From positions 1 to 38,378 of the IMG/VR virus record IMGVR_UViG_3300012990_000007: DNA of 38,378 nt; one strand, 5' to 3'. Each line of letters opens with the position of its first letter. Positions within the stretch are counted from its first letter, which is position 1. This document shows positions 4,361 to 8,961 of this stretch, piece after piece. The notes below the pieces were generated by a model. It did not search any database, was not told the origin of the DNA, and saw nothing but the letters and a program-made list of their open reading frames with translations. Origin of the DNA: a virus. Lineage: Duplodnaviria > Caudoviricetes. The translations under genes were made by a program, and so were the position numbers.

Positions 4361-5197
4361 ATGGGCGAGGGGCCAAGGCGTCACTTCATAATCCCCGACA
4401 CCCAAACCCGCCCCGGAGTGCCGCTAGATCATCTGGCGTGGATCGCGGAATACCTTGTAGAGCGCAAGCCAGATGTCATTGTCCACCTGGGCGACCATTG
4501 GGACTTCCCCAGCCTTAACGGCCACGACCAGCCGGGCAGCGCTCCGCTAGAGAACAAGCGTTACGCCGATGATCTGTTTGTCGGTAACGAGTCATTCAAG
4601 ACCCTGTGCCTTCCGATGGAGACCGAGATTGCCCGCCTCAAGAATGGGCGGCGCAAGCGGTGGAACCCCCGCAAGGTTTTCACGACCGGCAATCACGAAG
4701 CGAGGGCGGACAGGGTAGCCAGCAATAACCCCAAGTTTCTGGGCACCATAGGTTCGCACCAGTGCGACATTCGGGACTTTGAGCGCCACCAGTTTCTAAC
4801 GCCTGTTCTCATAGACGGGATTTATTACTGTCACTTCTTTTCCAATGTCGGCACCGGCAAGCCGATAGGCGGGGAAATCCACACCCGTCTGACGAAGATC
4901 AATGCTTCATTCATTCAGGGCCATGAGCAGGGCAAGCGCGAAGGCAACCGCGTCACCAGCACCGGCAAAACGCTGTACGGGCGGGTTCTAGGCTCCTGTT
5001 ACCTGCACCGCGAAGATTACCGGATGAACCATCAGCGCCATTGGCGCGGGGTTGTGGAGTTAAACGAGGTTGAAGATGGCGAGTACGACGCCATGGAGGT
5101 CAGCCTGAAGTTCTTGTGCCGGAAATACGAGGGGATGCCGCTCCACGTTTTCTGCAAGCTGAAATATCCAAACGGCGATTGGGATCATTTGAAGTGA
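4361..5197 (+). CDS. Calcineurin-like metallophosphoesterase
   Basis: Motifs IPDTQ, HLGDHWD, GNHE, YCHF, QGHEQ. Confidence 0.9.
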   Translation: MGEGPRRHFIIPDTQTRPGVPLDHLAWIAEYLVERKPDVIVHLGDHWDFPSLNGHDQPGSAPLENKRYADDLFVGNESFKTLCLPMETEIARLKNGRRKRWNPRKVFTTGNHEARADRVASNNPKFLGTIGSHQCDIRDFERHQFLTPVLIDGIYYCHFFSNVGTGKPIGGEIHTRLTKINASFIQGHEQGKREGNRVTSTGKTLYGRVLGSCYLHREDYRMNHQRHWRGVVELNEVEDGEYDAMEVSLKFLCRKYEGMPLHVFCKLKYPNGDWDHLK

Positions 5198-5925: not shown

Positions 5926-6071
5926 GCGGCTGGCTGCTGGGGGTTGTCGGGCTGATATATCTGGGCGTGGCATCTGATTACTGGTGCAGGGGCGAAACCG
6001 GCATGGCGCTGGCGTTCCTTTTTTACGCCTGCTCGAATTGTGGGTTTATCTTGGCAGGGCTGCGGCTGTGA
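5922..6071 (+). CDS. Small 2-TM membrane protein (49 aa)
   Basis: ATGA overlap; MSGWLLGVVGLIYLGV...LFYACSNCG. Confidence 0.7.
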   Translation: MSGWLLGVVGLIYLGVASDYWCRGETGMALAFLFYACSNCGFILAGLRL

Positions 6072-6400
6072 CCCCGGCATTCCTCGCCGCTGCCTACGAT
6101 ATGCTGCGCCTGACAGAGCCGTTCGAGGCTTGGAAACTGCCGCCTTCCAGCGAGTGCCGGTTCAAGGCATCCCGCAGCCGCAAGGTCTGCGCTGACTTTA
6201 CGGTGATCGGCGGCGTCCCGACTTACCGGATCAGCACGGCGACCAACGGATTTTTAGCCACCATCCTCGCCAGCCTATGTCACGAAATGCTGCACCACCG
6301 GCAGGCCCAAATAAATTCGCGCGAAATACATGGCCCGCGATTCCAGAAGATGGCGGCGAAGGTCTGCGCCATCCACGGCTTCGATCCCAAAACATTCTGA
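6068..6400 (+). CDS. SprT-like zinc metalloprotease domain protein
   Basis: GTGA overlap; HEMLH (HExxH) and HGPRF motifs. Confidence 0.8.
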   Translation: MTPAFLAAAYDMLRLTEPFEAWKLPPSSECRFKASRSRKVCADFTVIGGVPTYRISTATNGFLATILASLCHEMLHHRQAQINSREIHGPRFQKMAAKVCAIHGFDPKTF

Positions 6401-6446
6401 ATCTGCGCACCTAGCTGTCCCCTCCAGCCGGTTGATGCGCGATGCG

Positions 6447-6487
6447 TTGGCCCCTGTCCCTAACGGGATGGGGGCCGATTGCGTTTC
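6447..6487 (+). terminator. Probable terminator of the late/lysis transcript
   Basis: Hairpin TTGGCCCCTGTCCC-TAAC-GGGATGGGGGCCGA followed by TTGCGTTT. Confidence 0.55.
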
Positions 6488-6640
6488 ATGGCAAAGGCTC
6501 TGTGAGGCTCGCACAGCGGCATTTGCGAGGGGCGGTGTAGGACACGGGCGGGCCTTGAAGGGGCTTCTGGGGCCATCTGTGGCCGCGTGAACGGAAAGAG
6601 AACGCAAGGTGCAGGGGCGCACAGCCAACGGGCCGGAAAA

Positions 6641-6803
6641 GTTTAGCACTCCATCATCTAAGCCCTTGAATCTACTAGGGCTGATAAACGGGGAATATTG
6701 CTAAACGGCTTTGATTTTATTGGGCTGGCGCCTACCCTACCGTTAGACGATCCCCCAACGGGATCAGAGACTTACAGACCGTTTAGCAAATCTGTTTAGC
6801 ACT
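6641..6803. other. attP: attP region: core 6729-6749, tRNA 5' fragment 6736-6757, arm-type repeats GTTTAGCA, IHF-like boxes
   Basis: Directly downstream of int; GTTTAGCA at 6641, 6781, 6794 and inverted at 6699-6706; near-matches to WATCAANNNNTTR. Confidence 0.85.
6736..6757 (-). other. 5' fragment (22 nt) of a tRNA-Gln-like gene; not a complete tRNA
   Basis: TGGGGGA-TC-GTC-TAACGGTAG-G = acceptor 5' strand, U8 and D-arm with GG; no anticodon or T arm follows. Confidence 0.75.
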
Positions 6804-7818
6804 TTTGCCCCCGATTGGGAAGGCGCGAAATGGCCCGGTCAGCCTGTAATTCTTGGCTCGCCTGCCTAATGTAATGCTCGACCAACTTCAAGCTTTTGTG
6901 TCCCGTGATAGCTTGTATTTCCGGCCCGCCAGCGCCCAATTCTGCCAAGACCGCCGCAGCCGTATGGCGCAGGCCATGGAAACTGAGAGTGTCGGGAAGT
7001 CCGGCGCCGATCCTGGCATCCCGAAAGTCGCGGGAGAACACCCTTGGGTGGAACGGCAGGCCGCTCTTACTGGTCAGGATGGTTTCTGCGGTTCGCGGGG
7101 TGGCGTCCAATAGCGCCATCAGGTCGGGATGGACGGGGATTGATAGCCGCGCCCCGGTCTTTTGCTGGCGCAGGCGAACCCGCTGGCCGTCATAGTCTCC
7201 CCAGCGCAAAGCAATAACGTCAGAAAGCCGCTGCCCGGTGTACAGGCCCAACTCCATCGCCAGCCGCATTGTGGGACTCGCACAGGCCCGCATGGCTTCT
7301 AGGTCTTCCACGGTCCACCGTTCGTATGGATCGCCGCCCTTGAGTCTCCCAATGCCGCTGGTGGGGTCCGCCTTTACGATGTGGCGGGACAGCGCAAACC
7401 GGAACAGGGTGGATACCACGGCGATCATGTGGTTCGCGGCGCTGGGGGTGTTTTTCATCTTGTCGCGGATGGCGTGCAGGAACCCGTTGCTAATATCGCC
7501 CAGCGGCCTATGGCCTACGGCGTTGTCCAGCCGGTTAAGGTAGCGGCGGTAGTCTCGCTGTGTGCCGGGGGCGAGGGCGTGAAACTCGGCACATTTCTGG
7601 AATAGGTCTATCGTGTGCGCCACGCTTCCCTCTGTGTATCTGCCTATGGGGGATTCCGGCTCAATCAGCAGCTTGGCATAGGCGGCGTGGAAATCTGGCA
7701 TTCCCGGCGTTCCTGGGAGCCTGTGGGTCATCCCGCCGCGCCGGAACCGATAGTAGGTCTTGCCCTTGATATTCTGGACATAGACGTACTTGGGCAGGCT
7801 AGAATCGCGCGACCTCAT
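6796..7818 (-). CDS. int: Tyrosine integrase
   Basis: TGQRLSD, QQKTG, FHGLRHT, TGHKS, EHY catalytic residues; N-terminal arm-binding YYRFRR; ATG 7818 with RBS preferred over 7899. Confidence 0.96.
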   Translation of the reverse strand: MRSRDSSLPKYVYVQNIKGKTYYRFRRGGMTHRLPGTPGMPDFHAAYAKLLIEPESPIGRYTEGSVAHTIDLFQKCAEFHALAPGTQRDYRRYLNRLDNAVGHRPLGDISNGFLHAIRDKMKNTPSAANHMIAVVSTLFRFALSRHIVKADPTSGIGRLKGGDPYERWTVEDLEAMRACASPTMRLAMELGLYTGQRLSDVIALRWGDYDGQRVRLRQQKTGARLSIPVHPDLMALLDATPRTAETILTSKSGLPFHPRVFSRDFRDARIGAGLPDTLSFHGLRHTAAAVLAELGAGGPEIQAITGHKSLKLVEHYIRQASQELQADRAISRLPNRGQKC

Positions 7819-8002
7819 CGGCCCAATCTTCCCTCTTAGGCTTATCGCCTTGCAGGGCGTCAATATAGGCGTCCAGTTTGGTCCTGTCCCATAGTTCATG
7901 CGGCCCCAGCTTTACGGGCGGAATCCCTATGTGCTTGCGGAAAAACCGGGGGCGCAATCCACAGTATTCAGCAGCCTCCCGGAGCTTTAGCAGCCTAGGC
8001 AT
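7799..8002 (-). CDS. xis: Excisionase (winged HTH)
   Basis: LLKLREAAEYCG...WDRTKLDAYID; overlaps int start. Confidence 0.85.
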   Translation of the reverse strand: MPRLLKLREAAEYCGLRPRFFRKHIGIPPVKLGPHELWDRTKLDAYIDALQGDKPKREDWADEVARF

Positions 8003-8096
8003 GGCCGCCCTTCACCACGAGGCGTCTTATATGATGCGGCGTAACGCACCAGCGGGCCGCAAGCTGGGGGGCAGAATATGCAGCAGGGTGGCTCAT
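7995..8096 (-). pseudogene. Truncated second excisionase-like HTH (33 aa)
   Basis: Hand translation MSHPAAYSAPQLAARWCVTPHHIRRLVVKGGHA; HTH start lacking the wing. Confidence 0.5.
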
Positions 8097-8111
8097 TGGA
8101 TTGGGGGCCCC

Positions 8112-8297
8112 TTAGATTTTCGTGGTCATCATTGACGCGAAGCGGCGCAGGCTGCAGTCGCCGTCCGTGGACTCGCCGCCGTCATCCGGCACCCGGCGAA
8201 ACTCCACGCGGCTGCCGGTGATGGCGCGCACGATGAAAGCCGCGCCCGCCTCTGCGGACTTGTAGCGTTCCCCTGCCTGTATCTCGTGGGTCTGCAT
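8112..8297 (-). CDS. Hypothetical protein
   Basis: AAGGA RBS; in operon orientation. Confidence 0.7.
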   Translation of the reverse strand: MQTHEIQAGERYKSAEAGAAFIVRAITGSRVEFRRVPDDGGESTDGDCSLRRFASMMTTKI

Positions 8298-8313
8298 GAC
8301 GATCCTTAAATGT

Positions 8314-8961
8314 TCATGCCACAGCCTGGACTTTCAGGTGTGGTGCATTGGATTGAAAAACAGCCCGCGCAAATCCCATCGGGGTGATGCTGCGGATATT
8401 GCCGCGATCCTCTGACGGCGGCATCTTGTGCATCATGCTGCCAAGGGTCGGCTCTACCCAAGTCGGCGCTGCGAACGTATCGCCTGGCTTTATAACTGGC
8501 GGCATGGCGAACCCGCCACCTGTCCAGAGGCAGGTTTTCTTGGTGTACGGGTCGCCATAATCGCACGGATCAAAGGCGTGGTCAGGGTCGCGCCAGTATG
8601 TCGCCAGTGTGCCGACCGGGTTCTCGATCATGTAAGGGGAACCAGACTGTTCACAAATTGCGCGGCAAGCGTCCACGATCTGTAGCGCGCCTATGAGTGC
8701 GCCCAAGCCCTTTTCCTTGAACCAACGCGCGCCGCTGACGGCCAAATGCGTACAGGGAGGAAAAGCAAAAACGCAAACGGGCTTGTCCATGTTGGCCGGA
8801 TACTGCCACTTGGTAACATCAGCCTCGAAATGCTGCCGCGCGCGGTTGACGGATGGCGCGGGTTGCAGATCGACCGTCACGGCATCATAGCCAGCGTCAA
8901 GCCACGGCTTCACCATGTTGCCGGTTCTGTCGCAGAGGCTAAGGACTACACCGCGTGACAC
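8314..8961 (-). CDS. Short C5-cytosine DNA methyltransferase
   Basis: VLSLCDRTG SAM-binding, FPPCTH catalytic, IENPV motif. Confidence 0.85.
   Translation of the reverse strand: MSRGVVLSLCDRTGNMVKPWLDAGYDAVTVDLQPAPSVNRARQHFEADVTKWQYPANMDKPVCVFAFPPCTHLAVSGARWFKEKGLGALIGALQIVDACRAICEQSGSPYMIENPVGTLATYWRDPDHAFDPCDYGDPYTKKTCLWTGGGFAMPPVIKPGDTFAAPTWVEPTLGSMMHKMPPSEDRGNIRSITPMGFARAVFQSNAPHLKVQAVA

Follow-up and report, generated by a model that had tools for sequence, protein, structure and literature searches.

The attP site of the temperate phage described here appears to recombine near base 22 of a host tRNA-Gln(CTG) gene and to rebuild the 5′ end of that gene from phage DNA, with the rebuilt tRNA then transcribed from a promoter inside the integrase gene (int). 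We put the probability of this reading at roughly three in four. The site is a real attP; its reversed polarity is rare but described, and the position within the tRNA at which it acts is seldom reported. Reversed docking is known already, and what appears to be new, judging from sequence comparisons, is the predicted promoter inside int. Such a promoter shows how an element could bear the cost of inserting in the rare, reversed sense: its most constrained codons would double as a host-type promoter. An assumption of the literature, that the rebuilt tRNA is read from element DNA, becomes testable with three synonymous changes.

The attP region of the phage

The window, by which we mean the whole 38,378-nucleotide stretch analysed, is one 38.4-kb virus record that encodes a terminase, an SU10-type portal, capsid, adaptor and lysozyme, as well as a repressor-like HTH/S24 protein, a Rad52-like recombinase and a tyrosine integrase. 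Because structural, lysis, repressor-like and integrase genes are present together, we interpret it as a temperate phage. A DNA methyltransferase gene (PHROG 757; 8314–8961, minus strand) and a metallo-phosphoesterase gene (PHROG 221; 4361–5197, plus strand) are also found, and a GC-rich hairpin at 6449–6476 (plus strand), past the last plus-strand ORF ahead of the att region, is a possible late-transcript terminator. CAG encodes 190 of the 221 glutamines in ten long phage ORFs. This phage itself is seen in intact attP form alone. Its att region is uninterrupted in the two sequencing runs that match it best at the DNA level, whose 39.4-kb contigs may be its source; no RNA run was listed as containing it. 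One run (X3) returned a contig that departed from the window at 6736 into tRNA-Gln-like letters; it was gone on a second look and is given no weight.

The integrase has a complete R-K-H-R-H-Y set (R197, K220, H281, R284, H307 and Y316), which we take to be its catalytic residues. The 367-aa ORF called for it is 27 codons too long, and we place the start at 7818 because the 27 upstream codons overlap an excisionase-like gene (xis, 8002–7799) that tblastn also finds in 12 of 17 relative loci. The stop codon is at 6798–6796 on the minus strand. In a database search, the closest integrase among named phages is only 37% identical, and a search of named phages with attP gives matches solely in the tRNA-Gln genes of Caulobacter phages.

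The initial annotation had read the minus strand 38 nt after the int stop as bases 1–22 of a tRNA and had described core arms CGTCTAA and GTAGGCG, complementary at 5 of 7 positions and flanking CGGTAGG, an 11-bp inverted repeat (6698–6708 and 6779–6789) and direct copies of GTTTAGCACT at 6641 and 6794. All of these were located again (Table 1). The tRNA piece spans the 5′ acceptor strand, the 5′ strand of the D-stem, the D-loop and two bases of the 3′ strand of the D-stem. We count its bases linearly and take linear positions 1–22 to be 1–23 in standard tRNA numbering. TGCTAAAC is present four times in the window, and every copy lies within 6641–6802. CAA at bases 45–47 is invariant in 10 of 10 attP sites, and the AATCAA motif is symmetric about base 19 in 7 of 11. 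The assignment of TAAGTCTCTGATC and ATTCAAGGGCTTA as IHF-like follows what we assume to be the IHF consensus. The site has a core flanked by repeated putative arm sites, conserved across attP loci, as expected for the attP of a lambda-like tyrosine integrase. The site lies outside the int coding sequence, with only arm P1 overlapping the int stop. ARAGORN finds no whole tRNA gene in the window, and an Rfam search of positions 6000–8500 returned nothing relevant.

Table 1. Features of the int–attP region, in window coordinates
Feature	Position	Strand	Basis or remark
tRNA-Gln(CTG) bases 1–22, TGGGGGATCGTCTAACGGTAGG	6757-6736	-	38 nt past int stop
Most likely 7-bp overlap, CGGTAGG (tRNA bases 16–22)	6736..6742	-	Identity end points and symmetry about base 19
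Phage-side core arm, GTAGGCGC	6728..6735	-	
Arm-type repeat P1, GTGCTAAAC, overlapping int stop	6794..6802	-	Conserved in attP alignment; putative integrase arm site
Arm-type repeat P2, TTGCTAAACGG	6779..6789	-	
Arm-type repeat P′1, TTGCTAAACGG	6698..6708	+	Inverted relative to P1/P2
Arm-type repeat P′2, GTGCTAAAC	6641..6649	-	AGTGCTAAA invariant in 4/4 aligned attP
Predicted IHF-like site, TAAGTCTCTGATC	6762..6774	-	Conserved [T/C]TGA at a fixed distance ahead of tRNA piece
Conserved AATCAA, IHF-like half site	6711..6716	-	Mirrors the site ahead of tRNA piece
Second predicted IHF-like site, ATTCAAGGGCTTA	6659..6671	-	Comparable site in 3/4 aligned attP
Predicted -35, TTGAAG (Leu310 codon TTG + Lys311)	6886..6891	-	TTG in 15/15 clade loci
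Predicted -10, TAGGCA, without -7T (Ile317 third base + Arg318)	6863..6868	-	17 bp past -35
Tyrosine integrase (int), 340 aa	6796..7818	-	Pfam PF00589, E 4e-23
Excisionase-like gene (xis), 67 aa, overlapping int start	7799..8002	-	PHROG 66 excisionase, E 3e-6

Target gene, integrated relatives and crossover position

Relatives were drawn from viral, metagenome and genome contigs, which gave 33 rows extending to the int C-terminus at an identity of 45% or more. Removal of 12 duplicates or near-duplicates and of four short C-terminal matches (L023, L024, L121 and L124, counted as outgroup) left 17 distinct loci, window included, with int identities of 50–100%. The tRNA-Gln 5′ piece is present in all 17. 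Eleven are in attP form, with the piece at a fixed position and followed by phage arm repeats, and in the other six it runs on as a complete tRNA-Gln(CTG) and then, where the contig extends, into non-phage flank. In 15 of the 17 loci the tRNA sequence immediately follows int, on the same strand. In a midpoint-rooted int tree whose deep nodes are weak, the 16 leaves that are long enough form one clade with support 1.0. The tree holds 37 more distant relatives (about 25–42% identity), most of which carry a tRNA or fragment on the opposite strand behind int, some of the labels for these normal-orientation fragments being doubtful. Because most distant relatives thus show the usual 3′-replacing layout, the clade most likely arose by a single flip of orientation. 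Two distant relatives have tRNA-Cys (L020:10902–10975) and tRNA-Gly (L096) behind int on the same strand and are possible further reversals, the former clouded by a second integrase downstream.

Both ends of an integrated element, which the initial annotation had proposed to map in close int homologues, can be read in two relatives, and each element is bounded by the tRNA piece. G804, an IMG/VR record with an int 63–65% identical to that of the window, carries same-strand tRNA copies at 174 and 55,918, 55,744 bp apart. Its int end consists of the arms and a whole tRNA, and its far end of host DNA with TTGAAA-17-TAAACC, tRNA bases 1–29 and the phage arms. L059 is a 2.4-kb decayed island (L059:1573–3970) between rlmE and tRNA-Gln(CTG), with two copies 2,376 bp apart and the same two junction types, that has lost xis and the first 36 int residues. 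In both, a 5′ fragment lies upstream of an intact gene on the same strand with the integrase between them, and the 5′ stub has been left behind a host promoter-like TTGAAA-17-TAAA. The predicted separation of the tRNA from its host promoter is therefore seen in a prophage and in an island. Two clade members, L054 (2500–3027, minus strand) and L029 (from about 6255, plus strand), have an ORF adjoining att whose N-terminus resembles the first 55 int residues (46% and 59% identity, respectively). It is fused to an endonuclease domain in L054 (PHROG 3322, E 1e-21), and the downstream sequence of L029 is similar; this ORF could encode an att-associated homing endonuclease with a borrowed arm-binding domain.

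With C or T allowed at base 16, the 22-mer has a single match in each of 48 genomes among 401 sampled from the class of Bosea sp. WAO, a tally that includes two unpublished genomes, G245 and G045, whose loci (L199 and L221) were left out of the 29-locus host counts, the tree and the rlmE survey. A reversed 22-mer has no match in the same 401 genomes, which argues that the matches are not due to chance. The 22-mer sits in a tRNA-Gln(CTG) gene in 29 of 29 host loci tested, and this, with the six full genes at int-side junctions, narrows the proposed tRNA-Gln target to the CTG isoacceptor. The same 22-mer had been expected to predict the host. It does match the alphaproteobacterial class, but it is also found in 4 of 121 genomes of another class and so cannot fix the host by itself. 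The phage is likely to have an alphaproteobacterial host because the lysogen junction of L059 borders the host gene rlmE, and a match to rlmE, at most 69% identical over 200 aa, is present at 13 of the host loci searched. A 45-base tRNA query gave matches to Azospirillum and Methylorubrum replicons at 85–95%. A search of two orders (401 and 301 sampled genomes), made without a positive control, returned no integrase of the clade.

The clade adds a compact group of integrases directed to a fourth tRNA sub-site, present once in each sampled genome that has it, and may serve integration vectors in alphaproteobacteria; prophage callers that seek only 3′ tRNA repeats will misplace such ends. Other integrases use the same gene. 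Distant relatives L050 and L160 are found at the opposite, 3′ end of tRNA-Gln(CTG), oriented in the usual way, which means that both gene ends are used, and in L041, L046, L051, L053, L238 and L240 the tRNA-Gln 5′ piece stands beside different arm repeats. The L053 int shares 28% identity, the tree places L240 outside the clade, the match in L051 extends through the anticodon loop and L041 resembles a host-promoter junction. The 5′ end of tRNA-Gln(CTG) seems to have been targeted more than once.

Where in the tRNA the crossover lies can be approached from the extent of identity between the phage-side arms and seven sampled host alleles. Identity ends at base 22 in three of 13 arms, at base 23 in two and at bases 24–29 in the rest. 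It never ends before base 22, and in none of the 13 does it extend to the anticodon loop or 3′ of it, as it does at the classical tRNA sublocations. These end points, with G804 and L059, uphold the earlier claim that the phage supplies the tRNA 5′ end and crosses over at or before base 22. The left limit of the crossover is unreadable because the phage must carry bases 1–15 for the gene to be rebuilt.

Symmetry offers a second approach. Over the whole arms, centres at base 17 (47 of 110) and base 19 (46 of 110) are tied, but at bases 25–30 alone centre 19 scores 47 of 78, compared with 31 for the next best centre and 21 for centre 17. Across the clade, the phage-side arms lean at bases 25–30 toward AGACG(A/C), which is TCGTCT inverted. 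In 7 of 11 attP sites a flanking TTGA/TCAA pair has its centre at base 19, and a profile from the relatives' anticodon-stem arms weakly favors bases 16–22. From the identity end points and the symmetry about base 19, we infer that the overlap is probably CGGTAGG (bases 16–22). This is the overlap proposed by the initial annotation and the best placement in the symmetry tests, preferable to AACGGTA. It straddles the D-loop and D-stem and leaves the hairpin's own dyad unused.

It is possible, at clearly lower odds, that the same reversed integration instead proceeds by crossover within the 7-nt D-loop AACGGTA (bases 14–20), with the D-stem supplying the core symmetry, in the manner of anticodon-loop and T-loop sites. 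All 10 attP sites compared have G21 and G22, the whole-arm symmetry gives centre 17 its tie with centre 19, and loop-centred crossover is the pattern that the relevant part of a review describes at other tRNA sites (PMC8371274). However, the D-stem partner bases 23–24 vary among attP sites, centre 17 is near chance outside the shared stretch, and the TTGA/TCAA pair is centred on 19 rather than 17. AACGGTA was our first-choice overlap and was dropped to second once bases forced by tRNA identity were set aside.

A predicted promoter inside int

The candidate promoter, TTGAAG-17-TAGGCA (6891–6863, minus strand), is of sigma-70 type and occupies int codons 310–318, around the catalytic Tyr316. Its codons were examined in the 15 loci with att directly behind int. 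Leu310 is TTG in 15 of these 15 loci, which are kin and therefore not independent counts, whereas TTG makes up 12% of the 414 Leu codons taken as background and, at 22 other Leu sites, reaches 7 of 13 at most. T-A follows exactly 20 bases past the TTG in the same 15 loci, although the residues encoded there vary (Ile/Thr and Arg/Ser/Lys) and the codon background is 31% for ATT and 18% for AGR. At codon 318 the residue changes yet the first base, A, stays. Among 106 distinct outgroup loci, TTG is found in 10, TA in two and both in none. TTG-N20-TA occurs only once on the minus strand in window 6757–7950. Two further sites pass the same bias filter with a rare codon: Ile330 (ATT in 12 of 15) and Ser6, whose codon overlaps the xis stop. 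Val12 passes it with a common codon.

Three relatives with altered layouts also bear on the motif. In L063, a nested member of the clade, attP faces the other way with respect to int (L063:3990–4260). The L063 int encodes the same peptide as CTG..ATC CGT, so that the motif has been lost through synonymous changes, and it has a promoter-like site of its own, TTGCCC-17-TATACA, 71 nt ahead of the tRNA piece. In L054, att is displaced 600 bp by an inserted gene, the int motif is kept and a second motif, TTGCCC-17-TAATAA, precedes att. L059 retains the int motif despite the loss of xis and the int start. Overall, TTG-N20-TA lies within 160 nt upstream of the tRNA piece in 17 of 17 loci and in 7 of 83 control windows. 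L063 is a single case of loss of the motif, but the loss and replacement there form a natural control that points to compensation.

The site also resembles promoters of the presumed host. TA stands at -12/-11 in alphaproteobacterial sigma-70 promoters. A TTG -35, a 17-bp spacer and frequent absence of the -7T are described for alphaproteobacterial promoters in part of one report (PMC8407463), and TTGAAG-17-TAGGCA has the TTG, the spacer and the TA. Within 80 nt upstream of host tRNA-Gln genes, TTG-N20-TA is found at 9 of 29 loci compared with 0.3 expected, the strict motif being absent from this interval in the other 20. A scan for E. coli-type promoters returned one site, with 1.0 expected by chance, and missed the int motif because it requires the -7T. 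The arm repeat GCTAAAC, which resembles host -10 boxes, was considered as a -10 and rejected, since visual inspection showed no conserved -35 at a suitable distance from it. We think it likely that codons 310–318 carry the promoter for the rebuilt tRNA; the case, built on comparison of the loci above, is strong circumstantial evidence, short of proof. Counting against it are the similar codon bias at Ile330, the motif kept in L054 despite its distant att, and the 20 host loci that do not show the strict motif. Neither driver suggested initially, read-through from int or a promoter in the att arm, is favored over this conserved site within the 3′ end of int.

These elements suggest the following course of events. 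Integration would yield one junction of int, arms P1/P2, the complete tRNA and host flank, and a second of host promoter, a 22–29-base tRNA stub and phage arms P′1/P′2, both of which are seen in relatives and presumably form for this phage. Int-mediated strand exchange would border the 7-bp CGGTAGG; the core sites, TCGTCT and its inverse, would lie two bases beyond it. In lysogens of lambdoid phages xis-int is silenced, and it is probably silent here as well, which we propose is why the clade keeps a host-type promoter in codons 310–318. Transcription from about 6857 would run through P1/P2, and the resulting pre-tRNA would have a leader about 100 nt long. RNase P trims the 5′ leaders of pre-tRNAs and would remove this one; the base before the tRNA piece (-1) is T in 16 of 17 loci. 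The net effect would most likely be that a single-copy CAG-reading tRNA stays expressed. Because the int site copies the form of the host's own tRNA-Gln promoters, compensation for the lost host promoter fits better than the regulatory switch that had been suggested.

Two other accounts of expression should be weighed against an in-int promoter. Read-through from the xis-int operon could express the tRNA, the conserved codons then reflecting a protein-binding site or shared descent. The tRNA does lie directly behind int on the same strand in nearly all loci, Ile330 is likewise biased, and archaeal pTN3-like elements are said, in the relevant part of a review, to use the integrase promoter for the rebuilt tRNA (PMC8371274). 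This account is nonetheless unlikely: the TTG-N20-TA spacing is exact in all 15 loci with the A kept while residue 318 changes, L063 drops the motif when att is inverted and carries a separate one, and L059 is without xis and the int start.

A little less likely again is a regulatory or addiction device, in which Int and IHF on P1/P2 in the tRNA leader tune a needed tRNA and the lysogen depends on the prophage. The arm repeats do separate the tRNA from the predicted promoter, all 48 genomes with the target have it once only, and the decayed island L059 retains the promoter-bearing end of int. However, the motif looks like the usual promoter of a host tRNA gene, nothing resembling an operator was noticed there, and precise excision would give back the host promoter, so that there would be no addiction to the whole prophage. 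Addiction is further weakened by the fact that tRNA-Gln(UUG) can read CAG by wobble. S. meliloti has both tRNA-Gln genes (PMC11476347 Table 3). An extended version of the in-int promoter reading, in which the flip at the edge of the D-loop and the promoter at the catalytic-Tyr codons leave a lone CAG tRNA transcribed through an Int/IHF-bound att arm and tuned by the integrase, is doubtful. If it were true, integrase occupancy would tune a core translation gene, and the int 3′ end would be kept in decaying prophages as a host promoter.

Finally, it is very improbable that the 22-mer is a tRNA remnant or chance match without a link to integration: the window is without a whole tRNA and the phage itself is not seen integrated, but in 11 attP-type loci the piece stands at one constant place amid the conserved arm repeats, and G804 and L059 are bounded by it.

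Comparison with known systems

Zhao and Williams 2002 (J Bacteriol 184:859) reportedly describes the type case of 5′-fragment islands. In the Islander collection (Hudson, Lau and Williams, PMC4383910, Table 1), a 5′ tDNA fragment is displaced in 159 of 3919 islands, and in S. meliloti 9 of 88 islands are of the 5′-fragment kind (PMC11476347 section 2.2). Like those Islander entries, the elements described here combine a tyrosine integrase with a tRNA target, show the 5′ fragment moved upstream and rebuild the gene from element DNA. The crossover classes given in that part of the Islander report are the anticodon and the T-loop or its junction only, whereas here identity ends from base 22, before the anticodon arm; its discussion there includes no replacement promoter, whereas one is predicted here in int. 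Within the mainly open-access literature searched, we found no paper on the clade, on this tRNA-Gln site or on a promoter inside int that serves a rebuilt bacterial tRNA. A tRNA-Gln-TTG site is mentioned in PMC12486242, in a passage that does not give its orientation.

The closest match in position is provided by the Klebsiella arg2A islands, for which the pertinent section of the report describes a D-loop sublocation with upstream insertion, termed a novel sublocation (bioRxiv 2020.11.02.365908). There, as here, the repeat covers the acceptor 5′ strand, D-stem and D-loop, and the element lies upstream of the tRNA. The likeness is one of site and repeat description alone, the target being tRNA-Arg in another host class, and that section neither places the overlap nor describes an in-int promoter. 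Insertion points on the D-loop side also figure among those reported for Phage_Finder, in the part of that paper concerned (PMC1635311).

Archaeal pTN3-like elements, according to the section of a review that treats them, have as attB the 5′ half of a tRNA gene and express the rebuilt tRNA from their own DNA, an arrangement that the review calls seldom met among bacteria (PMC8371274). In those elements attP lies inside int and the integrase's upstream promoter is used, whereas in the window attP follows the int stop at a distance of 38 nt and the predicted promoter lies within int. The split-integrase layout of pTN3-like and SSV-type elements, with attP inside the int coding sequence, is accordingly absent from the window.

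In tRNA-dependent lysogeny of mycobacteriophages, as outlined in part of one report (PMC10865867), the lysogen's tRNA supply likewise rests on phage DNA. The host tRNA is not rebuilt in that case and the phage carries a whole spare tRNA, whereas here the window has no tRNA gene and a full tRNA-Gln(CTG) is restored at the int-side junction in six loci. The dusA-associated integrases, in the corresponding portion of their description (PMC4482086), act on a protein-coding target, unlike the tRNA targeted here, but they too replace the 5′ end of the target and bring a putative -35/-10 upstream of it after integration.
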